Shown here: positions 500-48,943 of the stretch, piece after piece
Position numbering within the stretch: position 1 is the first letter of the stretch
Layout of the letters: every line of letters begins with the position of its first letter
IMG/VR virus record: IMGVR_UViG_3300005286_000507
Location: 1 to 51,020 of that record
Length of the DNA: 51,020 nt
Direction: 5' to 3' (one strand)
From: a virus
Taxonomy: Duplodnaviria > Caudoviricetes
Made by a program: the position numbers and the translations under genes
Notes under the pieces: model-generated
Database searches by the model: none
Seen by the model: the letters and a program-made list of their open reading frames with translations, nothing else
Told to the model about the DNA's origin: nothing

Positions 500-529
500 T
501 AACTACCAATTAACTACCATGAAACTACC
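500..529. repeat. AACTACC x3 direct repeats, putative integrase arm-type sites
   Basis: taactacca 500-508, taactacca 511-519, aactacc 523-529 at the integrase 3' end. Confidence 0.5.
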
Positions 530-1937: not shown

Positions 1938-1953
1938 GTGCAATCCCCCTCAC

Positions 1954-3814: not shown

Positions 3815-3952
3815 ATGGACGATCAGAATTCCAATAAGATTAACTCGTTAGTTGAGCAGAATATTCTTGATGATTTATTGATCGTTCTTTCTTCTTGCAG
3901 CGAGAGCGAGATCGAGAGCCTTAAGGAGTATTTCCTTAAACTCGGGGTCTGA
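3815..3952 (+). CDS. 45-aa acidic peptide, antisense-overlapping the CI 3' end
   Basis: MDDQNSNKINSLVEQNILDDLLIVLSSCSESEIESLKEYFLKLGV, GGATGGTG RBS, downstream of the SOS promoter. Confidence 0.45.
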   Translation: MDDQNSNKINSLVEQNILDDLLIVLSSCSESEIESLKEYFLKLGV

Positions 3953-4291
3953 CGTACTTGCATCATACTTATTAGCGACATTCTCAACCTCACGAACCGT
4001 CGACAAAAGGTTACGGTTTATTTTTTCATAGATGACATCATTTATATTTATTGAACTGTCATTGTCATCAACATCTAAATACCCCGCTATCTCCATCAAC
4101 TCCTTATAACCAACACCTAAGTGTGGACTTAACTTTTTTAAAATGTCTGGATTAGGTATCCCTCGCTTTCCATTTTCTATATGAGATAAATATGCGTTTG
4201 AAACACCGGAGTATAGTTCAAGCTGCCTTATTGTCATTTTCTTTGCCTTTCGAAGAGAACGTAAGTACAAACCGAATTCCAATGCATCCAT
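3875..4291 (-). CDS. CI-like repressor (XRE HTH, no S24 peptidase domain)
   Basis: MTIRQLELYSGVSNAYLSHIENGKR; divergent from Cro-like gene. Confidence 0.9.
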   Translation of the reverse strand: MDALEFGLYLRSLRKAKKMTIRQLELYSGVSNAYLSHIENGKRGIPNPDILKKLSPHLGVGYKELMEIAGYLDVDDNDSSININDVIYEKINRNLLSTVREVENVANKYDASTSDPEFKEILLKALDLALAARRKNDQ

Positions 4292-9856: not shown

Positions 9857-11001
9857 CAACATTTGCAACTGGTCTTGTAAAGGTAACTGAAACATATGCG
9901 CCGATGATTGAGCGCCAACTGAGCGGCAACGGGGTCCACTTGGACCCCTACGGCAAGCAATGTGTCATCAACGCCATATCGGCAATCAACACTGTACTGG
10001 ACTCTAAGGGGCTGACCTGGAACGACGAGCAGCTTGATAGAAACAATGTCACACAAATCCTGATGAACGTCGCGGCGCTCAAATTGAATGCTGCGGCAAG
10101 CCCCCGAGAAGTTTATTTCCAGCTTCGCAATACCTCTATTAAAACCAAAGAAAACGGCAAGGAAGTCACGATCTGGCGCAAACAGATTGAAATGGGCATC
10201 GAAGGTGATGGGAACGACGCGATCCTAAATAACTTCGGCCGCAACGTGAAGCAAGTTCGTCCATACTGGCTCGTCCGTGAAGGTGATGGATTCGAATACC
10301 CGTCCTTCAATGGCCTTGAAATGTCGCCTCCCAAATGGACGCCGAAGGGTCAGGGAGAAGTCGTCCGGATTGTTTATCCCATCATCTTTAACGACGACAG
10401 TATCCAGTATTTTATCGGTGAGCGCGAGGACGTAGTTAAAAACCTCATCGCTCACATCAACAACAACATCATGAATGAAACATTCGGGGTCATGCCGGCA
10501 GGAAAGAATCGCTACGATGCGAATGCTGAACAGAAGAAGAAAATCGCCGAGAAGAAGGCGGAGGTCTTGAAGAAGGCAAAGGAAGCCGGCCTTGGAGCTC
10601 TGGACGACCCTGAACTTCAGCAATACATCAGCCCGGCGTGGTCTGAGTTTCACAGCCGCGAACAGATGCTGATTCGCAAGATGCGCAACAACATCGTAAA
10701 GAAGATTCCGAAGGACTTCGGCAGCGCGTTCGTCGAGATTCTTCACGCTAACGCTTCGGACGAAACTTATGCCTCTGTACAGCGCGAAATCGCGGAAAAT
10801 GCGAACAGCGAACCGATCGACATCAAGGCTGAATCTCGCCAAGAGGAACCGCAACCAACGAAGGCTGCAGAACCGGACACATCTGAAGAACGAGAACCTG
10901 ATCAAAACGGAGATGTGTCAGAGCCGGTGCAAGGAGACCTCTATGCAGAGTTTGACGCTCACTATGCTAGCGCAGAACCATCTGGCGGTCCGGGCTTCTG
11001 A
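9853..11001 (+). CDS. recT: RecT-like single-strand annealing protein
   Basis: AALKLNAAASPREVYF, MGIEGDG, EQMLIRKMRNN, acidic tail ending PGF. Confidence 0.75.
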   Translation: MTTFATGLVKVTETYAPMIERQLSGNGVHLDPYGKQCVINAISAINTVLDSKGLTWNDEQLDRNNVTQILMNVAALKLNAAASPREVYFQLRNTSIKTKENGKEVTIWRKQIEMGIEGDGNDAILNNFGRNVKQVRPYWLVREGDGFEYPSFNGLEMSPPKWTPKGQGEVVRIVYPIIFNDDSIQYFIGEREDVVKNLIAHINNNIMNETFGVMPAGKNRYDANAEQKKKIAEKKAEVLKKAKEAGLGALDDPELQQYISPAWSEFHSREQMLIRKMRNNIVKKIPKDFGSAFVEILHANASDETYASVQREIAENANSEPIDIKAESRQEEPQPTKAAEPDTSEEREPDQNGDVSEPVQGDLYAEFDAHYASAEPSGGPGF

Positions 11002-11708
11002 TGATCGAGATCAAATCCTTCGGTAGCAGTTCGGCGGGAAACTGTTACTGGATATCTGACGGCAAGACGGAATTACTTCTGGAAGCCGGCTTACGTTTCG
11101 CAGACATCCGCAAGGCGCTGGAATTTCGCGTCTCCCGCCTTGGGGGATGCCTGATCACCCATAACCATGGTGACCACATCAAAGCAGCCATGGATCTTGC
11201 CAAAGCTGGCGTTAACATCTACTCAGCGCAAGGAACATTCGATGCTGCTAAACTGTCCGGACATCGATATAAGGCAATACGATCTATGGAGCAGTTCACG
11301 GTAGGTTCATGGTCGATTATGCCGTTCCCGGTGGAACACGACGCCGAAGACCCGTACGGATATCTCCTAGCCAACCAGGACGGCGACAAGCTTGCGTTTC
11401 TGACTGACACCTACTACTGCCGCTACACTTTCTCTGGCCTCACGCATTTGATGCTAGAGTGCAACTACTCGCTCAGTATCTTGGACGCCAACATAGCAGC
11501 CGGCCGGGTCCATCCGGCAATGCGGCCGCGGCTCCTACGCTCTCATTTCTCGCTCGAGAACTTGAAAGACTTCCTCCGGGCGAACGATCTATCAAAACTT
11601 CAGGAGGTCCACCTCCTGCACCTGAGCGACAGTAACAGCGATGAGGAACTGTTCAAAAGAGAGGTTCAAAAAATAACGGGGAAGCCGGTCTATGTGGCTG
11701 GCAGATAG
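11001..11708 (+). CDS. Metallo-beta-lactamase-fold nuclease
   Basis: GSSSAGN, THNHGDH, EHDA, TDT, HLSDSN. Confidence 0.9.
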   Translation: MIEIKSFGSSSAGNCYWISDGKTELLLEAGLRFADIRKALEFRVSRLGGCLITHNHGDHIKAAMDLAKAGVNIYSAQGTFDAAKLSGHRYKAIRSMEQFTVGSWSIMPFPVEHDAEDPYGYLLANQDGDKLAFLTDTYYCRYTFSGLTHLMLECNYSLSILDANIAAGRVHPAMRPRLLRSHFSLENLKDFLRANDLSKLQEVHLLHLSDSNSDEELFKREVQKITGKPVYVAGR

Positions 11709-11903
11709 GAGCGAAAATATGAAGCCCAAACACAGCAAGCTTGATTCTAGAGGAATGTTGTTCGTCGCTTGCTCCGAATGCAATCGACGAGGAAACGGTG
11801 ATCAAAGCTGCAGCAGTGGTTGGACCATCAAGCGTGGCGGTCCTGAAAAAGGGGCATGTTTCTCCGGATCGTTACTAGAAAAGTACGAGGTGGTGAGGAC
11901 AGC

Positions 11904-12056
11904 ATGAAGAACGGAAAGCGCCCTACCAGACGCCAAATGAAGGCAATCGAGTCCGCCGGCCTTAACCTCGAAAACTGGTTAGTCAGCAAAGCCCTATCCG
12001 ACGAATTACTCCTGGTGCATAAATGGACCGGACAAACAAGACGCCTCCCATTGTAG
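11904..12056 (+). CDS. Conserved small phage protein
   Basis: MKNGKRPTRRQ..GLNLENWLV pattern common in Bacillales prophages. Confidence 0.65.
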   Translation: MKNGKRPTRRQMKAIESAGLNLENWLVSKALSDELLLVHKWTGQTRRLPL

Positions 12057-12249
12057 TCAATCCCGACGAGTTCGGAAGGCCACTCACAATCTTTGGAGTC
12101 GGAGACAACATTTGGAGCATTGCAAAGACGGACAAGCAACAGTTTAAGGAGCGTATGGAGGGCTATGTAGCCCTCTGTATGCCGGGGTATCGAATTGTTA
12201 AGTTAATCTACCCCAATGTGCTTTTGCAAGAAGAGAGACAACCGAAAGG

Positions 12250-12585
12250 GTGATAAAGATGGGGAAAATTGCTGTTCAAGAAGTAACTGATTTGGATTTG
12301 ACATTCGGCGGAAACATGAAAAAACTATTGCCCGATTACAGCATAATTCCCGACGAATTCAAGCACGGTCGGAATAAATGGTGCAAAGTCGTCGGCGATT
12401 GGTATTTCTATGGAATGAAGAATTGCACGTGGAAGCCAAAAGAAGGAATCGATACTCAGAAGGCATTACGGCATGTGAAGGCTGTTGTGGGATCGTGGGA
12501 ACCCAAACACGAACACAAGGTAGCCGGATGCGCGTATCTTCTAAGTGAGTTTTTCGAAGACGTCAAATATGAAAGAGCCAAGTAG
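12250..12585 (+). CDS. Hypothetical phage protein
   Basis: 111 aa, coupled start. Confidence 0.7.
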   Translation: MIKMGKIAVQEVTDLDLTFGGNMKKLLPDYSIIPDEFKHGRNKWCKVVGDWYFYGMKNCTWKPKEGIDTQKALRHVKAVVGSWEPKHEHKVAGCAYLLSEFFEDVKYERAK

Positions 12586-12918
12586 GTGATCCGAATGCCG
12601 ATCGGTGATTTCAATCCTTACAGTAAACAGCAGCAAGTTGAGTGTAACAGAGGGAGGCCTTCTCGAGGCCAAAGAAGCGAGATTTCCCCAACCGAGGTAA
12701 AGCGACTTCATGATCGCTCCGGAGGCGTCTGTGAGAAATGCGACAGCGCCAGGGCGACAGACAAGGCACACGTCGAGCGTAGGTGGAGGTCGGAACGTAT
12801 CCCGACAGCGGATGACGTATTGCACCTTTGCCACGACTGCCATACGTGGTGTGACGGCAGCAAGGAAGGCCGGAAATGGTTGATTGAGAAGCAAAAGGAA
12901 ATAAGAGCAAGGGGATGA
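12586..12918 (+). CDS. HNH-like zinc-binding endonuclease
   Basis: CEKC..KAHV..LHLCHDCH. Confidence 0.65.
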   Translation: MIRMPIGDFNPYSKQQQVECNRGRPSRGQRSEISPTEVKRLHDRSGGVCEKCDSARATDKAHVERRWRSERIPTADDVLHLCHDCHTWCDGSKEGRKWLIEKQKEIRARG

Positions 12919-36154: not shown

Positions 36155-39100
36155 GTGGATCTCGGCGAGCTGCGAGCACGGTTGACGGCAGATGCTCGGG
36201 AAATGCGGGCAGAACTTAGAGCGATAAAAGAAGATCTGAGAGGACAGAGCGCGGAAGCGAAAGCTGCATCAGGAAGTTTTGACGGGCTAAATGCGGCACT
36301 CAGTCAGATCGGATTGAATGCAGACCAAATCAAACGTATCCAAGATAACATCAGAAATACGAACCCGGAAGTGCTTCGACGGCAGCTAGAGGCTGTGCGA
36401 GAGCAGTTGCGAAATATGGGTCTGGACGCGGAGCAAATCGCGGAAATCGAAGAACAGCTAAACGATACAGCCGATGCAGCTGATGAGGCGACTCAATCTC
36501 TGCAAGGAATTGAGTCTATCCTGATCGCCATTGGCAGCATTGTGTCTATCCAAAAGATCGCCGACATTATCAAAGCGACGGTTGGAGAGACAAATAAACT
36601 GCAAAACTCGCTCAAAGGACTCAATAGTATCGCGATGTCGTTTCATCAAAACATCGACGATACAAACGATGCCGTTCAGGGGTTGGCCAAAGATGGACTG
36701 GCGCCGGTTTCTACTTATGCTGCTGGATTGAAGTCTCTACTCTCCACGGGACTCGGATTGGATCAGGCGAATGAGTTGCTTGAAACTTTCAAAGACCGAG
36801 CGGCATTTGGCAAAAGCGAAACAATATCCTTTTCACAAGCAGTTGAAAACCTAGCCCAGTCCTTCAAAACGGAATCTTCTGAAATTGGCGATCTTTCCGG
36901 CATGACGGAGAACTATTCGCTGATCCTTGAAAAGGGTGCGCAAGCAATCGGCAAGAAGGTATCTGCATTAACACAAGCAGAGCGGACACAAGCGAAATAT
37001 CTCGGAATCCTCCAACTTTCGCGACCGTATCTTGGCGACGCCGAAAAGCTTACCGAATCCTTCAGCGGCCGGCAAGCTGCTCTTAATGCTAAATGGGTAG
37101 AGGCACAGCAAATCATTGGGGAAGCTTATATACCTGTGCTTGACCAAGCAATGGAGACAATTACCCCTATCCTTGTGGGATTCGAAAAATGGGCGGCCCA
37201 GAATAAAGATGTTGTTGCGGGAATTACAGCCTTTACTCTTGCCATTGGTGCGCTTGTTGCGGGCATTGTCGTAATGATTCCAGTAGTAGGAAAATCCACC
37301 GTGGCAGTCAACTATTTCCGGAAGGCTATCTTAGATGCGAGTACGGCCGCAGCCGCAGCAACGACAAGGATGGCAGCATTCGGTGCGGCGCTGAATGTAT
37401 TGGCCGGCCCGATCGGCTGGATTATAACTGGGATCGGCATATTAGCAGCAGGAGTGTGGGCTTATAAAAGCGCCGCAGACGCTACAACGGAATCGATTTG
37501 GAAGTTTGCTCAGAGTCAAGAGGAACTAAATCGTAAACTTTCGGAATCGCCTCTAACCAGTACTGTGCAAGATGTTAAGAATCTCCAGGCTGACCTGGAG
37601 AAAATCAATGAAGTGCTCGAGCAAAGGAAGGAATTACAAGATGAACTAAACGCTTTATCGCCAGATGACAGTCTTGAAAGGATAGCAAAAAAAATATCTA
37701 GTTACGTAAAGTTCGATAGTGAGCAAGTAAAAATAGATGAGTTGAAGAAAAAAATTAATGAACTTGATGAGCAATTGTCAACGCTAGGTGTTAATACCCC
37801 TGACGATGCACCGAAGGTTCTTGCTGAACTTAACGAGCAACTGAAAGATTCGATTCCGGCCCTCCAAGAGTTGGAACGAGAAGGGTTGAGAAATATAGCA
37901 ACTCAGGTGCAGCACATCGATAAAGTTAGTGATTTGAAAAAACAGTATGAGCAGTTGGATAAGTTGGAAAAACTTACAACTGCTCAAAAATCACAACTGA
38001 ACGAAGTCGTTAAGCAGTTGACTCAAGAATACCCGGGATTGTTATCCGAACTGGATGAAGAAGGGCGCTGGCACATCAAAAATAAGGATCTGCTTGATAC
38101 TCTCATTGCGGCTGAAAAAGAATCAGTTGCCGTCTCTGCTCAGGGAGCCAAGGATAGAATTGAAAATCGGAAGAAGGAAACGGAGGCGAAACTGAAACTT
38201 GCAAAGTTACAGATTGAAGCTTTAATGAAGGCGGAAGGGGTCAATCTGGAGGATACGAAGATCGGTAGCAAACTTCCCGGAAATTTAGCCAAGGGATTGG
38301 ACTTTGTAGGCGATTTAATTTTACAAGGGACCGCAGCGCAACTGCAACAGAACGTCAATAAATATCAACAGACGATTAATGATTTGGATAAAGACCTGGC
38401 ATCAATTACTACAGGTAGATGGGACGATTTTATTTTCAAAATAGATGACGAACCCGTCGATGAAAAGACTAAAAAAACGAAAACAAAAACACTTGAAGAA
38501 ATACAACAGGAAGAGTATCAAGCTGCACTAAAGTATATACAGTACAAAAGAGACCTGAACCAGATGAGTGAGAAACAGGAACTTGCAGCACTCGAAAAAC
38601 TGGAGGCAAGGTACAAGAAGAATGCTGAAATCCGAATGGATGTAGAAGTGCGTATTTACAAGCTCCGGGATCAGATGAATAAGGCCTCTTTTGATGCATC
38701 GTCTGAGTGGATAGAACAAGAAGAACGCCGTATGACATTAGCGGGCAAGACAGAGGACGAAATAACGAAAATGAAGCTTGAAGCCTGGACCCGAGTGCGC
38801 AACCGGTATATGAAAGACTCGGAATTGTACAAACAGGCGGACACTCAGGTTTATCAGGCAAAAGTGGCCTTGATGAAGTCCGCAGCGAAAGCCGAAGAAG
38901 AGGCTGCAAAGGAGCAGGAGCAACGCAACAAAGAGACGACGAAGAAAGCCCTAGATGCAATCGAGAAGGCCAAGAAAGCGGAACTGGCGGCTCTGGACGA
39001 GCGGAAGAAAGCCATCGAGGACTTTTACCGAGACCAGGAACGCATCATTGACGACAAGGAGCGTTTGAAGGAACGAAACGACCTTGTCGCCGAGATGGAA

Positions 39101-39898
39101 AAGTACCGCTATGCCACGTCTGAAAAGGGGCAGAAACATTTTCTCGAGTTGCAAGAAAAACTACGTCAGATGGATGTGGAGGACCAGAAGCGCAGCCTGC
39201 AGGATGAGCGAGAACAGAAGCTGGAAGCGCTGGAAAAAGAGAAGAAGGATATTGAATCCTGGTACGATGAGTTGAAGGATGCGACGGACGACCTGACCAA
39301 GGACCTGACAAAACTGTACAAACTTGCTGACGATGAGCGGTTGAAGTCTTTTAAGGAGACAAACGCGCTGATCATTGAGGAAATGAACAAGCTTCAGACA
39401 GCCATGGCGGCAGGAACAGCAGTTAATGCTGGTAATGCGGCAGTTATCTCTCAGATGATGGCGAACAGTGCAGCGTGGTCCTCTGCTTCTCCAACGGACC
39501 GAAAACGTCTAGAGGATGATAATTACCGCTTAGGAACGTCACAAGGCTGGATTCGCAAGGTGGACGGCCGTTGGTATTTGCCAGATGGCAAGACGCCGGC
39601 TTACCATACTGGTGGATTTGTCGGAGAATCAAACTTCCGAAACGAAAGCTACCTCATGCCGGATGAAATCCAAGCTATCTTCAAGCGTGGCGAATTGGCG
39701 CTGACACCGCAGCAGATTGGAAGTATCGTAGGTGCTAGGGGTGGACAATCGATATCGGTTGGGAAAATCGTAGGCGTAGAACTAAACGACGTTGTCCTGG
39801 AAGACGAAATTGACTTGAGGTCATACGAAAAATCAGGCGGAAACGAAGCTGTTGAAATCCTGAGACAGCAATTGAGAGGGGGCGGCGGTGTTGGCTGA
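36155..39898 (+). CDS. Tape measure protein
   Basis: 1247 aa, MDLGELRARLTAD, helical, central hydrophobic segment, YHTGG..GE C-terminus. Confidence 0.95.
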   Translation: MDLGELRARLTADAREMRAELRAIKEDLRGQSAEAKAASGSFDGLNAALSQIGLNADQIKRIQDNIRNTNPEVLRRQLEAVREQLRNMGLDAEQIAEIEEQLNDTADAADEATQSLQGIESILIAIGSIVSIQKIADIIKATVGETNKLQNSLKGLNSIAMSFHQNIDDTNDAVQGLAKDGLAPVSTYAAGLKSLLSTGLGLDQANELLETFKDRAAFGKSETISFSQAVENLAQSFKTESSEIGDLSGMTENYSLILEKGAQAIGKKVSALTQAERTQAKYLGILQLSRPYLGDAEKLTESFSGRQAALNAKWVEAQQIIGEAYIPVLDQAMETITPILVGFEKWAAQNKDVVAGITAFTLAIGALVAGIVVMIPVVGKSTVAVNYFRKAILDASTAAAAATTRMAAFGAALNVLAGPIGWIITGIGILAAGVWAYKSAADATTESIWKFAQSQEELNRKLSESPLTSTVQDVKNLQADLEKINEVLEQRKELQDELNALSPDDSLERIAKKISSYVKFDSEQVKIDELKKKINELDEQLSTLGVNTPDDAPKVLAELNEQLKDSIPALQELEREGLRNIATQVQHIDKVSDLKKQYEQLDKLEKLTTAQKSQLNEVVKQLTQEYPGLLSELDEEGRWHIKNKDLLDTLIAAEKESVAVSAQGAKDRIENRKKETEAKLKLAKLQIEALMKAEGVNLEDTKIGSKLPGNLAKGLDFVGDLILQGTAAQLQQNVNKYQQTINDLDKDLASITTGRWDDFIFKIDDEPVDEKTKKTKTKTLEEIQQEEYQAALKYIQYKRDLNQMSEKQELAALEKLEARYKKNAEIRMDVEVRIYKLRDQMNKASFDASSEWIEQEERRMTLAGKTEDEITKMKLEAWTRVRNRYMKDSELYKQADTQVYQAKVALMKSAAKAEEEAAKEQEQRNKETTKKALDAIEKAKKAELAALDERKKAIEDFYRDQERIIDDKERLKERNDLVAEMEKYRYATSEKGQKHFLELQEKLRQMDVEDQKRSLQDEREQKLEALEKEKKDIESWYDELKDATDDLTKDLTKLYKLADDERLKSFKETNALIIEEMNKLQTAMAAGTAVNAGNAAVISQMMANSAAWSSASPTDRKRLEDDNYRLGTSQGWIRKVDGRWYLPDGKTPAYHTGGFVGESNFRNESYLMPDEIQAIFKRGELALTPQQIGSIVGARGGQSISVGKIVGVELNDVVLEDEIDLRSYEKSGGNEAVEILRQQLRGGGGVG

Positions 39899-40436
39899 TG
39901 GATTTACTTTCCGGGGGCAACACTGCTCCCTTTTTGGTATTAACCTATTGTCTTATCGAATCCATGACCCCGATTTGAGAGAGTATGAGGACGAGGCAGA
40001 CGGCAGGGCCGGAACGATCGATTATGGGTCAGAGTTTAGCAAAAGAGCGATCGATCTGAAGATTGACATCGAGCCAAATGATATGCCATTCCGTTTGCGA
40101 CAATCACAAATCTATAACTGGTTAAAACCCACACTACCGGCCGGAATCCTCGTGTTTGACGAGATACCGGACCGGTTTTTTTATGCCAAATTGACCGGAC
40201 GGCTGAGCCCAGAACAATTTTATCGTTACGGCACATTTGACCTGACATTAAAATGCACCGATCCGTTTGCTTACGGGCCGGAGATTATTCACGAATCCAC
40301 TATCACGGCGTCGCCGACACCGATTGATATCCAGTCTCTTGGAAGCGAACCGACACCACCCTTAATCGAGCTGACAAACACTGGGTCGACCACGATCAAT
40401 CTCTTAAAACTGCAAGTCGAATATCAAATCGAATAG
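39888..40436 (+). CDS. Distal tail protein (Dit), N-terminal part
   Basis: GFTFRGQH, GRAG, LVFDEIPDRFFYA, CTDPFAY. Confidence 0.85.
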   Translation: MLADGFTFRGQHCSLFGINLLSYRIHDPDLREYEDEADGRAGTIDYGSEFSKRAIDLKIDIEPNDMPFRLRQSQIYNWLKPTLPAGILVFDEIPDRFFYAKLTGRLSPEQFYRYGTFDLTLKCTDPFAYGPEIIHESTITASPTPIDIQSLGSEPTPPLIELTNTGSTTINLLKLQVEYQIE

Positions 40437-40447
40437 GAGCGATCATC

Positions 40448-40849
40448 ATGGCAATGGCAGTTAGCAACTTTTTGGCAACCGCGCTGCTCAATCAGGTATT
40501 CCGCAACACCGCGTACACGCGGCCGACGACGGTGTATCTTGCGCTGTATACCTCCAACCCTACCGCGGCAGATAGCGGTACTGAGGTTTCAGGAGGATCT
40601 TATGCAAGGCAAGCGATAACGTTCGGAGCGCCGGCCGTGGTCGGGGGAAAGCAAACAATCTCCAATGCTTCCGACATAACATTCCCGACCGCAACGGCTG
40701 ATTGGGGGAACATCACACATGTCGGAATACGAGATGCTTCGACGGGCGGTAACTTGCTCTACTATGGTCCAGCAGAAAATCCTCGAAGCATCCTAAATGG
40801 GGATGTTATTAAGCTTCTTGCCGGATCACTTGCGGCAAATCTGAACTAA
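40448..40849 (+). CDS. Tail/baseplate-associated protein
   Basis: VYLALYTSNP, EVSGGSYARQ, FPTATADWG, GGNLLY. Confidence 0.75.
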   Translation: MAMAVSNFLATALLNQVFRNTAYTRPTTVYLALYTSNPTAADSGTEVSGGSYARQAITFGAPAVVGGKQTISNASDITFPTATADWGNITHVGIRDASTGGNLLYYGPAENPRSILNGDVIKLLAGSLAANLN

Positions 40850-40862
40850 GGCGGGGTGTAGG

Positions 40863-41912
40863 ATGGCACAACAACCAATGTATCCCGGGTTTGTTAACAG
40901 CCCGCAGACAGAGTTGGTCGAAGCGATTGACGATACTCAAACAACCATCGAAGTAACGGATGCGTCAAATTTACCGGACGGCCCCAACCTTGCGACGATC
41001 GGCAGCGACGAAACAGCCGAAACCATCCGTTACGATGAAATAATAGGGAATGAGTTGACCGGCGTTGAGCGCGGCTTTCAGGGTGCATCTAAGGCTTGGG
41101 GTGCGGGGAGCAAGGTTGCTCGCCAATACACAGCATATGACCATGATGCGGCCAGGGAAAATATCGCTGATATTGACGGTCGCGTTGCTGCACAAATGGC
41201 GGATTTTGAGGAGCATGTAGACAATACAACCACTGCGCATGGAGTTAATACAAGATTGCCGATTTCTGGCGGGGTGATGACCGGAAAATTGACTGTTCCG
41301 GAAATCGAACTTGAAAATCGGATGGTTATAAAATCGACGGTTGTCGTTTTTAGTGGAAGCGTAAACGACAAGTTGGACATCGAGGTTCCTGGGGGTTTTT
41401 ACGGATCAATTGATGTTATAGTTACATCTAATTTCGGCACAAACAATGCGACGGGTTCGCTGACCAAACGAATGGAAGTTGGATTTTCACAGGCGGGTGC
41501 TATCACTGCCAACGAGGCAGTATACACAAATGCCGGCTTGCGAGTATCGTCTTATTTCACGATATCAGATTTATCGTGGGATAGTTCCAAGTCTAAGGGT
41601 GTAATAAAAGTTTCTAGGCTTGTTGGCACAGGACCTCAAAGCGTTTCAATTATTGTAATTTTATATGCGCCCAGCGCAACGGTTGCAAATATTGCACGGA
41701 ATACAACTTTTTCATCTGTTTATTCATCGGACACAACCGTATTTCCTGCGGCATATGACATAAAAAATTTCATTTTTAGAGGGACGGGAAGCCCTGAGGG
41801 TGTGGTTACCGCCTCCGTTGGAACCCTTTACTTGCGTTTAGACGGAAGTACATCGACCACGCTTTATGTAAAAACGTCCGGAACAGGGAATACGGGGTGG
41901 ACTGCAAAATGA
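40863..41912 (+). CDS. Tail fibre/receptor-binding protein
   Basis: N-terminal anchor (NSPQTEL..LTGVERG), LPISGGVMTG, C-terminal GSPEGVVTASVGTLYLR..GNTGW. Confidence 0.8.
   Translation: MAQQPMYPGFVNSPQTELVEAIDDTQTTIEVTDASNLPDGPNLATIGSDETAETIRYDEIIGNELTGVERGFQGASKAWGAGSKVARQYTAYDHDAARENIADIDGRVAAQMADFEEHVDNTTTAHGVNTRLPISGGVMTGKLTVPEIELENRMVIKSTVVVFSGSVNDKLDIEVPGGFYGSIDVIVTSNFGTNNATGSLTKRMEVGFSQAGAITANEAVYTNAGLRVSSYFTISDLSWDSSKSKGVIKVSRLVGTGPQSVSIIVILYAPSATVANIARNTTFSSVYSSDTTVFPAAYDIKNFIFRGTGSPEGVVTASVGTLYLRLDGSTSTTLYVKTSGTGNTGWTAK
41185..41216. other. Putative recombination site A (12-8-12)
   Basis: TTGCTGCACAAA-TGGCGGAT-TTTGAGGAGCAT; arms 9/12 complementary. Confidence 0.6.
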
Positions 41913-42226
41913 TAAAATCATGCGTATTGACGAATGGAATGGTTGAACATATCGGAGAGTGGAACTACCAATTCATAGATATCGACGGAGAGCAAATTCC
42001 TCAAAACCCTCTGCCAGAGGGCGCGGTAATTGTCGACCTCGAAGTCTATCAAGACGCGGATGGGGCATGGAGAGTGGTGGGTCACGAGCCGCCACTAGAC
42101 AATACAACCGCGCTAGCGCTTGCTCTCGCGGAGTTAGCGGAAGCGCAGGAAGTGGACAAGACGGAGATCCAGTTAGCTCTCGCCGAGCTAGCCGAGCTTA
42201 TGACAGGAGGCGATATCGATGGCTAA
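41909..42226 (+). CDS. Tail-fibre-associated small protein
   Basis: HIGEWNY..NPLPEGA; helical C-terminus LALAELAE; ATGA coupling. Confidence 0.7.
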   Translation: MIKSCVLTNGMVEHIGEWNYQFIDIDGEQIPQNPLPEGAVIVDLEVYQDADGAWRVVGHEPPLDNTTALALALAELAEAQEVDKTEIQLALAELAELMTGGDIDG

Positions 42227-42323
42227 AATCTACTACGATTTGATAGTTAAAGGTCTCAAGACGATCGACGACGTGCCGATCAGGTGGCGGGCGGATGTAC
42301 AAGCTTTACTCGACGCTGAATAA
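42219..42323 (+). CDS. 34-aa XkdX/CD1375-like peptide
   Basis: MAKIYYDLIVKGLKTIDDVPIRWRADVQALLDAE, AGGAGG RBS. Confidence 0.7.
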   Translation: MAKIYYDLIVKGLKTIDDVPIRWRADVQALLDAE

Positions 42324-42344
42324 ACGGAACATTTTGTGCAGCAA
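42313..42344. other. Putative recombination site B (12-8-12)
   Basis: ACGCTGAATAAA-CGGAACAT-TTTGTGCAGCAA; outer arm is the exact reverse complement of the site A outer arm. Confidence 0.6.
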
Positions 42345-42371
42345 GCTCGCGTCTCCGGCGCGAGCTATTTT
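42344..42371 (+). terminator. Intrinsic terminator right after site B
   Basis: AGCTCGCG-TCTCCGG-CGCGAGCT-ATTTT. Confidence 0.65.
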
Positions 42372-42393
42372 CGCCTTCATGGAGGGGTGACAG

Positions 42394-42672
42394 ATGAAAG
42401 ATCACGAGCATCTGCAGCAAATTGCGGATCGCCTGAATGGTGTCCTTGAATTGCTGTCCGTGGGTTCCGATTATCAGATAAAGGTGATAATCGTTTCGAA
42501 AAATGGTGAGCAAAATGGACGACACAACTTCGCGATTCCGGAGGGTGTCGAGATTCTAACCGTGAACGGAACGACCATTCCGTGGTCGCCGCGTCAAGAC
42601 CACAACATGGGGATGACAAATAAAAAAGCCCCGGATCACTCCGGGACAAGTTCGAGAATATCGGTAAGCTGA
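42394..42672 (+). CDS. Hypothetical protein
   Basis: GGAGGGG RBS, 92 aa. Confidence 0.55.
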   Translation: MKDHEHLQQIADRLNGVLELLSVGSDYQIKVIIVSKNGEQNGRHNFAIPEGVEILTVNGTTIPWSPRQDHNMGMTNKKAPDHSGTSSRISVS

Positions 42673-42842
42673 CAGTTCAGGACTTCGCATATTTTGGCTA
42701 GGTTCTTAAGGGGTAAATGCTTCGTCTTATTGGCGCACATCTCAAATATGGATGGTTGCCGAATACCGGTCAATCTCGACAACTCGTTCTGAGACATGTC
42801 CCTCTTATCGAGCAACACGTCGAGCTTGATGATAATTTTCAC
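42636..42842 (-). CDS. Small Cro/C1-type HTH regulator (YozG-like)
   Basis: KLDVLLDKRDMSQNELSRLTGI..LAKICEVLNCQLTDIL. Confidence 0.88.
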   Translation of the reverse strand: MKIIIKLDVLLDKRDMSQNELSRLTGIRQPSIFEMCANKTKHLPLKNLAKICEVLNCQLTDILELVPE

Positions 42843-42862
42843 ATAATCCCCCCGGAAACTTG

Positions 42863-42914
42863 ATACGAATAACGTATAACACTATACTATAGATAGTCAA
42901 TACGAAAAACGTAT
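42863..42914. promoter_or_regulatory. Twin palindromic operators between the HTH and recombinase genes
   Basis: ATACG-AATAA-CGTAT (42863-42877) and ATACG-AAAAA-CGTAT (42900-42914). Confidence 0.7.
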
Positions 42915-42932
42915 AGTTGCGGAGGGGACGAC

Positions 42933-43925
42933 ATGCAGGCTGCCGGGGAGCATTTACTGTCTCAAGTCACTCAGTCGTTGTTCGCGCTTTGTCCAACCGT
43001 CAGTGTACCGGACATTCAGGCGCGGCTGTCGGAAATCATCTCTCAATATGACATCAAGAGAATTGAATCGGAGGAGCCGCATCCAGATCTTCAAGAGAAG
43101 ATTGAACTTTTTTTGTCGGGAAAGAAGCTTGAAGGCCTATCGCCGTTGTCACTGGATGGGTATCGGCTCCAACTCCGAGTATTCTCCGAGCACGTAAAAA
43201 AGAGGGTCGAGGACATCACGACGGCAGACCTCAGGGTCTACCTTGGGCGCTTCCAGCATTTGAAGAGCGCAACCCTGTCGTCAAAGCTGTCCGTGCTCAA
43301 GTCGTTCTTCGGTTGGTTGACCGCTGAGGATATCATTCCAAAGGACCCTTCCGCAAAAATTAAACCACCGAAGAAAGAAAAGCGGCTGCCGAAGGCGCTC
43401 ACGATCGAAGAGCTTGAAATGATGCGCGAAGCTTGTAAGACGATCCGCGAGCGGGCCCTGATCGAAGCTATGTATGCAACCGGCTGCCGCCTTTCGGAGG
43501 TTCAGAAACTCAACCGGTCTGACATCAACTTTACCACGCAGTCATGCCGCGTGATCGGCAAGGGCAATAAGGAGCGCGAAGTTTACTTCAGCTTCAAGGC
43601 GATCTACCACCTGAAGAAATACTTCCTCTCACGAGGAGACCAGGAGCAAGCGTTGTTTATCACGGAGCGCCGGCCGTACCGCCGTATTTCGAAGCGAGGC
43701 ATTCAACGGGAAATTGGAATCATCGCAGTTCGAGCGAAGATCCCTAAGAACGTAACGCCTCATACGCTCCGCCACACTTTCGCGACGCTAACGCTTAATA
43801 ACGGCGCCGAACTGGTGGCCGTGCAAGAATTGCTGGGCCATGAAAACCCGGCGACAACACAGATATACGCTTCGATCACCGCGGAGCGTAAACGGGAACA
43901 GCATAGAAAATATCTCGTTCAATAA
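42933..43925 (+). CDS. XerD-like tyrosine recombinase (third in the prophage)
   Basis: SAM-like domain, TGCRLSE, GKGNKER, HTLRHT, LGH, TTQIY. Confidence 0.95.
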   Translation: MQAAGEHLLSQVTQSLFALCPTVSVPDIQARLSEIISQYDIKRIESEEPHPDLQEKIELFLSGKKLEGLSPLSLDGYRLQLRVFSEHVKKRVEDITTADLRVYLGRFQHLKSATLSSKLSVLKSFFGWLTAEDIIPKDPSAKIKPPKKEKRLPKALTIEELEMMREACKTIRERALIEAMYATGCRLSEVQKLNRSDINFTTQSCRVIGKGNKEREVYFSFKAIYHLKKYFLSRGDQEQALFITERRPYRRISKRGIQREIGIIAVRAKIPKNVTPHTLRHTFATLTLNNGAELVAVQELLGHENPATTQIYASITAERKREQHRKYLVQ

Positions 43926-43950
43926 GCCCTCATAAGGGGCTTTTTATTTT
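43924..43950 (+). terminator. Intrinsic terminator
   Basis: AAGCCCT-CATAA-GGGGCTT-TTTATTTT. Confidence 0.7.
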
Positions 43951-43968
43951 GAAAGGAGCTGACGCTCC

Positions 43969-44481
43969 ATGTTTAATCGCGGCGCATTCAACCGCATGCC
44001 GTTTAATCGTTCGTTTTCTGTAGAGATATTGTTCTCGGCCGTTTTGCAAGGCGAAGGAGGTTTGATAGCCAATCCCAACGTGGAGTATTTAGCTACCGTC
44101 ACCTTAGAGGGAGAAGGAGAACTGTTCGCATCCTACATCCGTGAATATCTTGTCAGCGCCGTTTTGCAAGGCGAAGGCTCCCTGACAGCCATTTCGATCC
44201 GCGAACGACTATTCAGCGCTCTTCTTCAAGGCGAAGGTGAACTTAAGGTTGCGGCCAGTCGGTTTCACATTGATGAAATCGACGTCCTCGGACCGTTTGC
44301 GCCGGGAGACAAGATCGTCATTGATTCAGCCAAACTCCGCGTCACGAAAAACGGTTCGGCAATCGGATACGAGGGCGAATTCTTTAACCTCAACCCGGGA
44401 GGCAACCACATTGTTTACACGGATACCGCAACTGGGAGAACGGTGCAAATCCGAATTACTCATCGCGACCGCTTTATCTGA
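43969..44481 (+). CDS. Tail protein with Dit C-terminal-like domain and SAVLQGEG repeats
   Basis: Four L(Q/E)GEG repeats; GDKIVIDS..VTKNG..GEFFNLNPGGNHI. Confidence 0.7.
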   Translation: MFNRGAFNRMPFNRSFSVEILFSAVLQGEGGLIANPNVEYLATVTLEGEGELFASYIREYLVSAVLQGEGSLTAISIRERLFSALLQGEGELKVAASRFHIDEIDVLGPFAPGDKIVIDSAKLRVTKNGSAIGYEGEFFNLNPGGNHIVYTDTATGRTVQIRITHRDRFI

Positions 44482-46482
44482 TTGGAGGTGATTACAATCG
44501 CCAGGAAATTCGAATCCCGCCTTGAACTTCACGTTGGTTCGATACGACACATTCTCGCGGCCGCGTTTCAGGTCAGAGTGCGCGAAGTGGTCAACGGGGA
44601 GTATTACGTCCAATTTATCTACCCGCGCGAGGACGACGACGCAGAGCGCTACACGGCACTTCTTGAAGGGCATGACATCCAGTTCCCTCAAAACGTCGAG
44701 CGCGGCCAGCGTTTTAGAATCAGGAGAGTTGAGGAAGTTAGGGAAGGCCGGAAGGTTTATAAGGTCGTCGAGGCCCATCATATCGCCTTCACGCTCAACA
44801 ACTATTACCTAGACGATTATATCGACTTCGCTGCGGCAAAGACGCTCTCCGAGATGCTGACAATGCTGGGAAACGACACTCCGTTCACTTTTGCGATTGA
44901 AGGGTCGTTTGATGCTCAGGATATATTTGACTGGGGCGAGAAAAAGCGTTACGACCTCCTGCAGGAGTTGCGTCAACTCTACGGCGCGGAAATCGCCCAT
45001 GACAATTATGCAATCACCCTGACGACGCGCAAGGGCGGGAACTACGGCGCTCGCGTCCGGTATGCGCACAATATGAAGGGCATACGACGAACAAGCCATG
45101 ACATGGAGCGCATTACGCGGTTGTATGGGTATGGCAAAAACGGCCTGACAATCGAAGGATATGGCGGACGGACGGTCAAATACATTGATTCGCCTTATCT
45201 GGACCCGTCTAATCCGTTTATGGGCTCGATGGAGTGGCCGGACATCGACGATCAAGGCCGGTTGCTGCAGGAGATGGAAAAGTATCTCGCAAAGTACGAG
45301 TTTCCGAACGTCTCCTATGCAACGGATTTTATCCAGATGGAAAAGGTAGACGCCGATTTCGAATCCGAGCGAATACGAGAGGCAGGCGATACGGTTACGG
45401 TCCTGGACACGGATTTGGGATACTCCTTCGACGCCCGGGCGATTGAATATGAGCGTTATCCGTTCGAACCAAAGAGGGGGAGTGCCATTCTCGCAAATTT
45501 CCGGCCAATGAAGACTTCGGACTACATTTTTCAGGCTACGGTTGCGTCAAAGAAGGCCATGGTATATACGTCCGAGAATGCCGTTCTCAAGGGCGTCAAA
45601 TATGATGACTCCTTAACCCTTGTCGATGGTCTCGGGATGAAGGTAACGGATGACCTGGCTCGCGAACGGCTCAGAATTGGGCAGACAGGTCCGGGAGAGT
45701 ACGGACTTACCATGTACAACAAAGCCGGAGACAAGACCGTATGGCAGGATGCCACGACCGGAGACGCGAGGTTTAAGGGGCTTATCCAGGCATCGGCGTT
45801 TGAAGGCGGGACGATAGCCATAGGCAGCGGAAACAATATCTTTAAGGCCGGTCCTGATGGGATACAACTTGGACATGCTAACTTTGCTTCAGCACCGTTC
45901 CGAGTCAGCCCGAACGGTCACATGGTCGCTGTTGGAGCAGAGTTTAGCGGGACGATCACTGCATCAATCCTATCAGGAGGACAGATCAACGGGACGACGA
46001 TTACCGGTTCATTGATTCAGACGGCACAGGCTGGCGTATATCCGAGATCGGAAATGAGTGTTTCTCAAGCCTATTTTGCCGCATATGCCGCAGCAAATAA
46101 GTATATCATGATGTCACCATACTTTTTCCAAGGCAGCGGCGTTGTCTTATCTTTTAATGATGGGGCATATGATACGGCCCTTTACCAAGATGGATCGCTA
46201 TTCGTCATTGGTGGAGTGGATACAAGAGTTCTTGGAGATTTGTCCATTCAAGGTTCTGGAGAGTTGTGGGTTCCTACTTGGGGACAAATAGTTGCAGGGT
46301 CGACATCTCTTTCCACTGAACTAGGGGGTAAAGCAACTTACGGAGCAGACACAACGCCTGCTGGAGGGCATAATCACGGTATATCCCCTGGGAGATATAT
46401 TATGACATACGACGCTGCAGGAAATGAACTTGGTCTGCAACTATGGGTCGCGGCAGCCGCACACGTGCACAATCAGACGTAA
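44482..46482 (+). CDS. Tal/tail spike (prophage tail endopeptidase family)
   Basis: VREVVNGEY, YAHNMKGI, ITRLYGYGKNGL, GDTVTV. Confidence 0.85.
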   Translation: MEVITIARKFESRLELHVGSIRHILAAAFQVRVREVVNGEYYVQFIYPREDDDAERYTALLEGHDIQFPQNVERGQRFRIRRVEEVREGRKVYKVVEAHHIAFTLNNYYLDDYIDFAAAKTLSEMLTMLGNDTPFTFAIEGSFDAQDIFDWGEKKRYDLLQELRQLYGAEIAHDNYAITLTTRKGGNYGARVRYAHNMKGIRRTSHDMERITRLYGYGKNGLTIEGYGGRTVKYIDSPYLDPSNPFMGSMEWPDIDDQGRLLQEMEKYLAKYEFPNVSYATDFIQMEKVDADFESERIREAGDTVTVLDTDLGYSFDARAIEYERYPFEPKRGSAILANFRPMKTSDYIFQATVASKKAMVYTSENAVLKGVKYDDSLTLVDGLGMKVTDDLARERLRIGQTGPGEYGLTMYNKAGDKTVWQDATTGDARFKGLIQASAFEGGTIAIGSGNNIFKAGPDGIQLGHANFASAPFRVSPNGHMVAVGAEFSGTITASILSGGQINGTTITGSLIQTAQAGVYPRSEMSVSQAYFAAYAAANKYIMMSPYFFQGSGVVLSFNDGAYDTALYQDGSLFVIGGVDTRVLGDLSIQGSGELWVPTWGQIVAGSTSLSTELGGKATYGADTTPAGGHNHGISPGRYIMTYDAAGNELGLQLWVAAAAHVHNQT

Positions 46483-46522
46483 CCTATGATATACTTAATC
46501 CAAATATTGGAGGGGGTATAGC

Positions 46523-47153: not shown

Positions 47154-47354
47154 ATGGGCACTAATGAACTCCTTGCTTTAATCGTCTTATCAATTCTTAT
47201 TGGTGGTTACATCGTTCTAATCCCGCTTTACTTGGTCAAACGTGCGGAGCTTGAGACGTTATGGAGATGTCACCGAAAGGTATGTGATGAAAGAAATGAA
47301 GCACACATAAAAATCGAAAAGCTCACTCTTGGTTCGGGACAGACGGAACATTGA
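47154..47354 (+). CDS. Small membrane protein
   Basis: GGAGG RBS, N-terminal TM helix. Confidence 0.5.
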   Translation: MGTNELLALIVLSILIGGYIVLIPLYLVKRAELETLWRCHRKVCDERNEAHIKIEKLTLGSGQTEH

Positions 47355-47859
47355 ATTTCCTGACATATTTCTTTCGAGAAGTATGAAAAGTGATTCTGAT
47401 TTTTTCTAATGAGTGTTCACCAAGATCAAAATACAGTGTCTTTCTGATTGTTTCAAACGGTTCAATAATAACAGGAAGCATGAGTACATTACTCTTGAAC
47501 GTTAAACTGTCAATGTCATGGTATTGCACAGGTTGCCTTAACAATAAGTGCTCAATTCCGCCAATAACAATTGCTATTTCATAGATTGATATTGGATGGA
47601 CAGATTTATTTATGAAATTAAATTCTATACAAAGACCGGAAGTATGAACACTTCGGTCTGCAACGGGCTGGCCCCACTCATCTTTTTTGTAACTAAATAT
47701 CTTGAAGTAGAATGGATCAGATCCTTTTGCGAGTTCAAATCGAACGGCTGATCTCTCTTTTAAGTGCCGCGATACGTTCATGCCTAAGGATATTAGCCCT
47801 GCGACTCCGCCGATGATCGGCAATACAACTGTAAGCAAGTTATCAATAGAAAAGTACAT
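47323..47859 (-). CDS. Counter-oriented membrane-anchored moron protein
   Basis: GGGAGG RBS before MYFSIDN; N-terminal TM; AT-rich. Confidence 0.7.
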   Translation of the reverse strand: MYFSIDNLLTVVLPIIGGVAGLISLGMNVSRHLKERSAVRFELAKGSDPFYFKIFSYKKDEWGQPVADRSVHTSGLCIEFNFINKSVHPISIYEIAIVIGGIEHLLLRQPVQYHDIDSLTFKSNVLMLPVIIEPFETIRKTLYFDLGEHSLEKIRITFHTSRKKYVRKFNVPSVPNQE

Positions 47860-47939
47860 GATTTGCCTCCCTTTTAGTCGTACTTCGACAACATGGGAGG
47901 TTTTTCCTTGCAAACAAACGTTCTAAGGAGGACTCAATT

Positions 47940-48173
47940 ATGGCAACCATCAATAACAAAATTGTATTAGAGGCAGATCCACGGAAGCCGATTCCAGAAA
48001 TTTGTTCAGTCATCACACACTTCCTGCAGATGTGGCCGGGGAGTGAGAAATTGATCTTGGAAGGGGTGAAAAAAGAAATTGAAGGAACATTGGCCAATCT
48101 TGAAAAAGCGCAGACGAAGCCCATGCCGGCCGCGAGACCGACCAACAACCGCAGACGCAAGAAGAGAAAATAA
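47940..48173 (+). CDS. Hypothetical protein
   Basis: AAGGAGG RBS; terminator at 48172-48195. Confidence 0.65.
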   Translation: MATINNKIVLEADPRKPIPEICSVITHFLQMWPGSEKLILEGVKKEIEGTLANLEKAQTKPMPAARPTNNRRRKKRK

Positions 48174-48595: not shown

Positions 48596-48943
48596 ATGCA
48601 AGCATATATCGATCAAGTCGTGCAGGCCCTCGTTGGCCTGCTTGTTGTCTTTGTCCTGGGCGTCATCGCGTCCCTGCGCGTAAAGGTTAACGCCTGGCTG
48701 GCGAGCCGAACGACAGCCCAGCAGCGGGAAATCCTACATCGGTTGGCGACGGAGGGCATGGCATTGGCCGAGGCCACTTATGCATCTCTGGACGGCCCAG
48801 CCAAACTAAACAGGGCACTCCAGTATGTCGTAGAACGTGCGAGCGCATATGGGATCGACGTCTCTGTGGAGACGATCAGGGCGGCCGTAGAAAAGGTGGT
48901 CCTCGAATACAACAGCAAGGTAAAAAGCGGTGAAGGTCAATGA
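48596..48943 (+). CDS. Holin (LL-H-like)
   Basis: N-terminal TM; AEATY..GPAKLNRA..IRAAVEKVV. Confidence 0.8.
   Translation: MQAYIDQVVQALVGLLVVFVLGVIASLRVKVNAWLASRTTAQQREILHRLATEGMALAEATYASLDGPAKLNRALQYVVERASAYGIDVSVETIRAAVEKVVLEYNSKVKSGEGQ

Follow-up and report, generated by a model that had tools for sequence, protein, structure and literature searches.

Two candidate Xer-type sites bracketing a tail-fibre tip: a possible natural cassette-exchange system in a temperate phage

Site-specific recombination in the Gin/Cin/Min systems of Mu, P1 and p15B changes host specificity, and the nearest report to the case described here is the Rin shufflon of Bifidobacterium prophages, an inversion system (both as given in an extract of PMC6109161). 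The present case is a 51,020-bp provirus record of a Caudoviricetes virus (IMG/VR record IMGVR_UViG_3300005286_000507, positions 1 to 51,020, rated 98% complete; hereafter the window), in which two 32-bp sites, A and B, bracket the C-terminal part of the tail fibre and its small partner genes, upstream of a gene for a XerD-like tyrosine recombinase. Judged by sequence comparison, A and B are on balance probably two different core-type sites of this neighbouring recombinase, serving in-frame exchange of fibre tips between genomes.

As in Rin, a phage-encoded, XerD-like tyrosine recombinase without an arm domain is located beside a receptor-binding gene with constant N-terminal and variable C-terminal parts, short asymmetric crossover sites lie at the junction, and the prophage has a separate integrase (PMC6109161). 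According to the extract of that report, Rin works by inversion within a single genome, among several alternative C-terminal genes that lie in either orientation and are separated by an 11-bp site of one kind (PMC6109161), whereas here there is one cassette with two different sites, no inverted alternatives, and replacements between genomes. With Gin/Cin/Min the present locus would share site-specific recombination at the border of constant and variable fibre parts, with the recombinase gene alongside (PMC6109161). Those systems use serine invertases, inverted sites and two opposed tip sets (PMC6109161), whereas the enzyme here is of the tyrosine type, outside the serine invertase class (Gin/Cin/Pin/Min), and no second tip set is present. 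For gp50 of Tyrovirus, a Xer-like recombinase in the structural module with an adjoining palindromic site, the extract of PMC9703825 uses the words "especially curious" and leaves the function unexplained. No description of recombinase-guided fibre-tip exchange was found in open-access full texts and bioRxiv.

Sites A and B and the neighbouring recombinase

Site A (TTGCTGCACAAA-TGGCGGAT-TTTGAGGAGCAT, 41185-41216, plus strand) comprises a strong outer (left) arm at 41185-41196, a central GGCGGA at 41198-41203, and a weak inner arm up to 41216, and starts at the second base of codon 108 of the tail fibre (349 aa, 40863-41912, plus strand), in frame, encoding VAAQMADFEEH. Site B (ACGCTGAATAAA-CGGAACAT-TTTGTGCAGCAA, 42313-42344, plus strand) comprises a weak inner (left) arm over a stop codon, a central GGAACA at 42326-42331, and a strong outer (right) arm at 42333-42344; the stop (42322-42324) belongs to a 34-aa CD1375/XkdX-like open reading frame (ORF; 42219-42324, plus strand; NCBIfam NF040910 CD1375_fam, 1.2e-13; phrog_1382, 3.6e-10), the last gene of the cassette. 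The original prediction, made by a model from the letters alone, had named both sites, and they were found with the sequences and at the coordinates it gave, as were the perfect 12-bp inverted pair formed by the outer arms and the inner-arm matches of 9/12 and 8/12 (counted by eye). It had placed A directly after the N-terminal anchor of the fibre (aa 1-107, 40863-41184, plus strand), which agrees with the alignments: the anchor was kept at 45-76% aa identity in L002, L017, L020, L043 and L045-48 (related loci are given L numbers), with matches stopping at aa 105-128, and in an alignment of 9 fibres conservation was lost at about aa 108-112, where A starts. Beyond aa 105-141, no homology of the window fibre to relatives' fibres was found, and the variable C-terminal part of the fibre that belongs to the cassette (about aa 119-349, 41217-41912, plus strand) is more AT-rich than its flanks, as had been noted (GC 0.42-0.45 over 41200-41900, compared with about 0.50-0.55 on either side). 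B does cover the last stop codon, as claimed, but the "terminator" it was said to adjoin is a GC-rich, weakly terminator-like 10-bp hairpin (42344-42366, plus strand; -18.8 kcal/mol, z -1.44) whose U run is only short and which was missed by the terminator scan.

One perfect 12-mer inverted pair is present in 39800-44600 and 10 are present in the whole window, against a mean of 1.23 in Markov-1 random 4.8-kb sequences, 62% of which had at least one; the window's inverted pair alone is not beyond chance. The sites were judged real from the evidence of relatives rather than from this repeat. The 15-nt sequence CGGAGCGCCGGCCGT, which exceeds the 12-bp inverted pair in length, was also seen as a perfect direct repeat at 40624-40638 (Gp80-like gene) and 43663-43677 (recombinase gene); it was found in no other context and is probably due to chance.

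The recombinase (330 aa, 42933-43925, plus strand; Pfam Phage_integrase, 3e-36), the proposed catalyst, starts 589 nt 3' of B, in keeping with the intact XerD-like enzyme predicted about 0.6 kb away. Aligned to XerD (1a0p) over aa 56-324 (E 5.1e-37), its R186, K213, H277, R280, H303 and Y312 fall on the XerD catalytic motifs, within matching segments ATGCRLSE, GKGNKER, HTLRH, LLGH and TQIY, and its domains are Pfam Phage_int_SAM_1 (N-terminal, SAM-like) and Phage_integrase. The enzyme has the features of a Xer-like tyrosine recombinase, namely the catalytic R-K-H-R-H-Y set and a two-domain core without a lambda-type arm-binding domain. The only NCBIfam model passed was XerA_Arch (XerA/integron-integrase model; 228.5 bits, cut-off 220). 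Scores were below the chromosomal equivalog cut-offs (XerC, 222.4 vs 335.15; XerD, 218.3 vs 329.6), the gene lying in a prophage tail module, and below the integron models (integrase_gron, 107.9 vs 265; PRK15417, 61.4 vs 435). Since the prophage has a separate, canonical integrase at its left end (525-1943, minus strand), the tail-module recombinase is, by sequence, a second, accessory enzyme. In the isolated-phage collection, the best recombinase matches were about 40% identical, in Clostridium phage phiCp-D and Terrisporobacter phage TPELB_ph1, both annotated "integrase" and both located between the last large tail gene and the holin; a DNA search of that collection with window 39000-46500 gave no match.

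Relatives of the recombinase were taken from viral contigs (41 loci) and from species-representative genomes (the best 80 of 160 relatives). L002 (recombinase 88% identical, aa) has the entire tail module in common with the window at a DNA identity of 78%. The original prediction expected identity between relatives to drop at the A spacer and to resume at B: identity to L002 does end inside the A spacer, at window 41203, but it returns about 280 nt past B, at 42622, the end of the helix-turn-helix (HTH) gene described below. Between these positions L002 has another fibre (625 aa) and another small ORF (76 aa in place of the 92-aa ORF of the window), yet GGAACATTTTGTGCAACA is still present on its fibre stop, and an A-like TTACTGAACAAAAGGCGGAA lies at the same codon as in the window. 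In L064, a Cohnella contig (recombinase 92% identical, aa), DNA likeness to the window is confined to the recombinase gene (42921-43951), and the gene order is Dit, a 608-aa tail-spike-like fibre, a 195-aa tail protein, HTH (minus strand), recombinase and Tal. The unrelated fibre of L064 holds TTGCTGCACAAAaGGCGGATTTT in frame at aa 206, with the exact 12-mer arm; this site agrees with window A at 22/23 nt and at all six synonymous positions and shares its codon phase, and GGAACATTTTGTGCAGTA follows one base after the stop of the 608-aa fibre. The B block GGAACATTTTGTGCAGCA(A), 18-19 nt, was found with 1 mismatch in L002 and L064 directly after the fibre stops. Conservation of both sites in relatives, a further expectation, is therefore seen in L064 and L002, around unrelated fibres beside the same recombinase. 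B was also considered, by eye only, as an extracytoplasmic function (ECF)-type promoter or as part of a terminator; this was dropped since what follows B is not constant: the window has a hairpin there, L064 a ribosome-binding site, and L002 neither.

The survey of the clade covered 37 distinct loci with recombinases at least 57% identical, and sites were found by patterns and a position weight matrix. Duplicates were merged by identical hit coordinates and site strings, with no formal identity test (L001, which is the window; L003 and L008 with L058; L004 with L061; L007 with L006; L009 with L065; L011 with L066; L015 with L067; L021 with L022; L024 and L138 with L074; L027 with L068; L028 with L077; L145 with L002). 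With the A pattern ..TG(C/A)(A/G)CA..(T/A/C) GGC(G/T/C)GA(T/A), required to be in frame, A was found in 20/37 loci, encoding peptides such as AAQxAD, NAQLAD and AAHSAD. With the B pattern GGA..A(T/A) followed by ..TG(C/T)(G/T)CA...., B was found in 26/37 loci (29 sites), a count that is partly circular because the matrix was built from 20 of the sites then found. All B sites precede the recombinase gene on its own strand, in most cases by 190-1300 nt, and 21/29 lie -1 to 12 nt after the stop of an open frame of at least 30 codons; three loci (L016, L017, L068) have two tandem B sites. All A sites are likewise on the recombinase strand and upstream, with none on the opposite strand or downstream of the recombinase in the 37 loci, and A and B together bracket a variable segment in 19/37. 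Elsewhere in the 37 loci the matrix gave 5 other matches of B score, and in 7 recombinase-less relatives of the same fibre family (L043-L048, L146) neither B nor an A in the fibre was found. Strand, position and absence from recombinase-less relatives are not circular. The exact window-type B pattern occurs in 10 stretches of the viral contigs, L002 alone being related, the other 9 lying in unrelated DNA and 7 of them in one common flanking context. A metagenome scan with the fibre anchor gave 2 loci only, L145 (apparently the 8289-nt contig of L002) and L146, the latter with neither recombinase nor B.

When the outer arm of A is compared with the reverse-complemented outer arm of B from the same locus, 172/228 positions agree, whereas re-paired loci average 150.1 +/- 5.1 matches and 0/50,000 permutations reach 172, shared ancestry not being controlled for in this test. 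The codon 5' of Ala in A varies in meaning (M, K, S, L or Q), yet its last base is G at 20/20 sites, and the third base of the central region is invariably C in A sites and A in B sites. In anchored alignments, each site stands out as a sharply bounded conserved block in DNA that otherwise cannot be aligned. The predicted 12-8-12 shape, in which outer arms are strong and inner arms degenerate, was found throughout the clade: inner and outer arms match at 5.3-5.6 of 11 positions, compared with 2.2-3.7 after a shift of the inner arm by 3-9 nt. The view from the first three loci, that inner arms are not conserved at all, was given up, weak conservation being seen in the larger sample. Each site comprises a strong outer arm, a centre of 6-8 bp and a weak inner arm, a layout that is also compatible with an 11-6-11 Xer-type site whose centre is GGCGGA in A and GGAnnA in B, and the central regions put A and B in direct (same) orientation, with the strong arms facing outward. 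Two sites with covarying outer arms and the same geometry thus bracket the cassette, and both would be recognised by the one enzyme.

Mosaic boundaries at the sites, which the original prediction had proposed as a test, were found in several pairs of genomes. In one Paenibacillus genome (G001), four fibre loci have sites, with a recombinase at L074 and L075 and none within 7-8 kb at L143 and L144. L074 and L143 are unrelated up to A, then 98% identical over 1496 nt to GGATCAT of B, past which the outer arms differ and the DNA is unrelated. L074 and L141/L144 are 83-100% identical through GGCGGAT of A and unrelated beyond, and L074 and L075 have 127 identical nt up to GGATCATATTGCGCA, ending inside B, and are only 74% alike further on. 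All-against-all comparison of 46 loci (identity at least 85%) gave 24 high-scoring segment pairs (HSPs). Among these, L005 and L026 are 98.7% identical over 4646 nt, beginning inside A at CATTCGGC, with differing outer arms; L005 and L006 are 93.6% identical over 3924 nt, beginning at B; the tract of L006 and L026 also begins at B; and L017 and L068 have in common the segment between two tandem B sites. For the 13 HSPs of site-bearing loci, 4/26 ends are locus edges, 8/22 of the others fall inside the 32-nt site in both partners, and two further ends (of the 22) lie within 31 nt of a site. By their sequences, these are exchange products with junctions in the sites, as expected of two-site cassette exchange, and the original prediction withstood the refuting condition that it had set itself.

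Some assemblies stop at or near sites: the metagenomic contig L013 ends exactly at A, and the genome contig L075 ends 112 nt upstream of B, which would fit assembly-graph branching from shared or alternative cassettes. In contigs from three sequencing runs of one sample, the only runs with this sequence and possibly its source, no joints were found, contigs being unable to show rare rearrangements.

Proposed exchange and its alternatives

In tyrosine recombinases, differing central regions mostly block a productive reaction. A and B have consistently different central regions (GGC.. vs GGA..), and no deleted or inverted natural variant was seen; this difference would stop A from reacting with B. 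When two phage genomes with such sites meet in one cell, either as two prophages or as prophage and infecting phage, crossovers of A with A and of B with B, presumably catalysed by this recombinase, would swap the segment between the sites, so that each phage would retain its own anchor and baseplate genes and gain the receptor-binding tip and partner genes of the other, in frame. A single crossover at A or B would reassort the fibre tip against the remaining genome. Since A is in frame and B lies on a stop codon, every exchange would give a clean protein fusion, which may in turn alter host range.

Several observations weigh against such directed exchange. Of the clade loci, 11/37 have no detectable B and 17/37 no A; L143 and L144 have good sites with no recombinase within about 7-8 kb, though two other prophages of the same genome have one; between the window and L002 identity is not regained at B, owing to a second small variable ORF beyond it; the count of B is in part circular, and shared ancestry enters the arm permutation. 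A overlaps a conserved fibre peptide ((V/L)AAQxAD, AAHxAD), so that its conservation is partly at the protein level, and the recombinase-less L146 retains an arm-like LAAH stretch. The sites could be short conserved module borders at which tips are swapped by homologous or relaxed (Rad52-like) recombination, the enzyme having some other job, such as genome dimer resolution at a dif/lox-like B. The conserved blocks of 20-30 nt could act as microhomology, which also speaks against a dedicated system; A coincides with the conserved peptide at a domain junction; L143 and L144 carry sites with no recombinase nearby; temperate phages often have mosaic borders at short stretches of conserved sequence (PMC3945230, in extract); and the Xer-like gene in the structural module of Tyrovirus, with its one palindromic site, is left without an explained role in the extract of PMC9703825. 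We nevertheless regard this explanation as unlikely, as it would not account for the non-coding 19-nt B block being kept while its surroundings change, for the covariation of the A arm with the B arm, for the constant G at a synonymous third position in A, or for the presence of sites in 0/7 recombinase-less relatives of the same fibre family.

A circular cassette, improbable in our view, would accommodate the L074/L143 and L074/L141 breakpoints as well as a double crossover does: A would recombine with B, excising the tip and leaving a palindromic strong-strong "empty" site, and the circle would insert into such a site elsewhere, in the manner of an integron or integrase, segments between two B sites behaving likewise. 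The central regions GG..A(T/A) on the same strand with strong arms outward, the tandem B sites of L016, L017 and L068 with an inter-B segment common to L017 and L068, and strong-strong sites near distant homologues, for instance after the fibre stop of TPELB_ph1, are in its favour, but the central regions consistently differ (GGC.. vs GGA..), no empty site was found in the fibre genes of the clade, where the sole full site (A of L063) still has its cassette, and an empty phage would be without a fibre tip. Inversion of the A-B segment by the recombinase, turning the tip off and on as in a shufflon, is very improbable, even though the outer arms form an inverted pair that is perfect in the window and near-perfect in many relatives and a tyrosine-recombinase shufflon acting on a phage receptor-binding gene is known in Rin (PMC6109161, in extract). 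The opposite strand encodes no alternative tip and has no long reverse ORF between A and B; opposite-strand A occurs in 0/37 loci; a flipped segment would stop the fibre after 7-17 more codons in the window, L002 and L064 (by eye); the central regions put the sites in direct, not inverted, orientation; and the natural variants are replacements, not inversions. A shufflon or invertible receptor-binding locus of the Rin, Rci or Min type was rejected on the same grounds, in agreement with the original prediction, which had spoken of host-range switching without a shufflon. That the repeat and the nearby recombinase are unrelated has next to no probability, for although 62% of random 4.8-kb sequences would contain a perfect 12-bp inverted pair, chance is contradicted by the conservation, the spread through the clade, the arm covariation and the breakpoints.

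Full palindromes were recorded separately. The sole full palindromic site within the clade is the A of L063, whose cassette is still present, and TGCRCA-N12-TGYGCA occurs beside more distant homologues 6 times in 1.59 Mb, compared with 0 in shuffles. In Terrisporobacter phage TPELB_ph1 (L148 5702-5733), a full palindrome, TGCACAAT-TTGAATCT-ATTGTGCA, lies over the stop of the last large tail gene (fibre), upstream of the 40%-identical recombinase, and this phage also has a second integrase. In a distant recombinase group (about 42-46% identical), full palindromes lie at L081 1390 and 5055, L082 14316 and L099 12825; one example is an Alicyclobacillus contig with two of them and two recombinase copies.

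Control region and surrounding genes

Within the cassette, the fibre is followed by a 109-aa partner ORF (41897-42226, plus strand), which had no family match above curated cut-offs and no tblastn match in L002, and by the 34-aa ORF that ends in B; the last 45 aa of the window fibre match phrog_16355 and phrog_21909. Between B and the regulator lies a 92-aa ORF (42394-42672, plus strand), the second variable segment, for which family searches gave no match.

A Cro/C1-type HTH regulator (42636-42842, minus strand; Pfam HTH_26, 6.3e-19) diverges from the recombinase, with a minus-strand terminator at 42647-42628 by the HTH gene. Two near-identical 16-bp palindromic repeats (ATACGAAnAACGTATA, 42863-42915), putative operators for the HTH regulator, overlap promoter-like sites at 42860-42888 and 42890-42917. 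The Cro-like gene and the two repeats over promoter-like hexamers suggest tight control of the recombinase, which the divergent repressor, bound at the two operators, would probably hold off most of the time. Paired palindromes (AAGTTATATAACTT(ATAT), twice) were also seen about 30-100 nt 5' of the recombinase in L004-L007, L019, L026, L061, L072 and L075, and are probably operators. Contigs of one sequencing run break exactly at the palindromic repeats (42857-42889). The recombinase gene is followed by a terminator (43924-43942, plus strand).

Upstream of the fibre lie the tape measure gene (36155-39898) and two platform genes, one for the N-terminal (RIFT) part of a Dit-like distal tail protein (39888-40436, plus strand; Pfam Sipho_tail, 1.9e-13; phrog_33 Dit, 1.5e-25) and one for a Gp80-like small fibre-associated protein (40448-40849, plus strand; Pfam PF23140 Gp80, 1.4e-51), which is located 5' of the fibre in 9 related loci as well. 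Downstream of the recombinase, the platform continues with a 170-aa Dit-C-terminal-like protein (43969-44481, plus strand; phrog_31951, 4.1e-49; Pfam SPP1_Dit, 6e-08) and a Tal-like tail protein (44482-46482, plus strand; Pfam Prophage_tail, 5.3e-32). Dit is thus encoded as two proteins around Gp80, fibre and recombinase, and this split order is shared by relatives; Dit is undivided in L064 (264 aa), and in L044 (7325-8516) DitN, Gp80 and DitC adjoin with no fibre among them. A mobile element splitting the Dit gene was considered, as DitN and DitC flank the block, and was rejected because phages that lack the recombinase (L043, L045-48, L146) have the same order, DitN-Gp80-fibre-...-DitC-Tal. 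The Dit-C-like protein starts with three copies of a repeat of about 60 nt (20 aa, ...LQGEG...; window 44017-44237). Two reverse-strand ORFs, 47323-47913 (196 aa, no Pfam match) and 47843-48160 (105 aa), lie between the tail genes and the holin (48596-48943), and a repressor-like HTH gene is present at the left end (3875-4291). In L064, a PAPS-reductase-like gene (phrog_424) and a transposase (phrog_5749) lie downstream of the Tal-like gene (10614-12821).

Comparison with known systems

A wider proposal, which we hold to be evenly balanced, is that a natural platform for cassette exchange exists in temperate phages of Paenibacillaceae and Bacillaceae, consisting of a dedicated, repressor-controlled Xer-type recombinase and two heterospecific sites, one in the reading frame of the fibre and one on its stop codon, with which co-resident prophages, including defective ones that lack the recombinase and retain only the sites, would trade receptor-binding tips and small downstream cassettes as precise in-frame modules. 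If true, phages would have a third way of changing host range, in addition to inversion switches and mutagenesis by retroelements. Tail-fibre mosaicism is usually ascribed to undirected homologous or illegitimate recombination, and recombinase-guided in-frame exchange would give a mechanism for part of it. It would also account for the Xer-like "integrase" genes among the tail genes of Firmicutes phages, make polylysogens and defective prophages a shared reservoir of host-range modules, and offer naturally diverged recombinase/site pairs, with two non-identical sites per enzyme, as candidate cassette-exchange tools.

The sites of the R64 shufflon (Rci, sfx), like those here, combine a well-conserved arm and spacer with a poorly conserved second arm and lie in frame in an adhesive-tip gene; unlike here, the shufflon undergoes multiple inversions in one locus, with one site type and no intermolecular exchange. 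Integrons (IntI, attI, attC) have a tyrosine recombinase beside a platform that receives cassettes, each ending in a recombination site, and the segment shared between tandem B sites here is likewise reminiscent of a cassette; unlike in integrons, one site here lies inside a coding frame, so that protein fusions would result, and the recombinase is downstream of the cassettes, on the same strand. The enzyme is XerC/D-like and the geometry compatible with 11-6-11, as in Xer/dif, but dimer resolution uses a single site per replicon, whereas here two distinct sites bracket a variable segment. The arrangement also resembles engineered recombinase-mediated cassette exchange with heterospecific lox/FRT pairs, in which one recombinase and two flanking sites likewise serve a replaceable cassette (PMC2887974, in extract); that is a laboratory design, whereas the system proposed here would be a natural one, in which the differing central regions of A and B would make the two sites incompatible.

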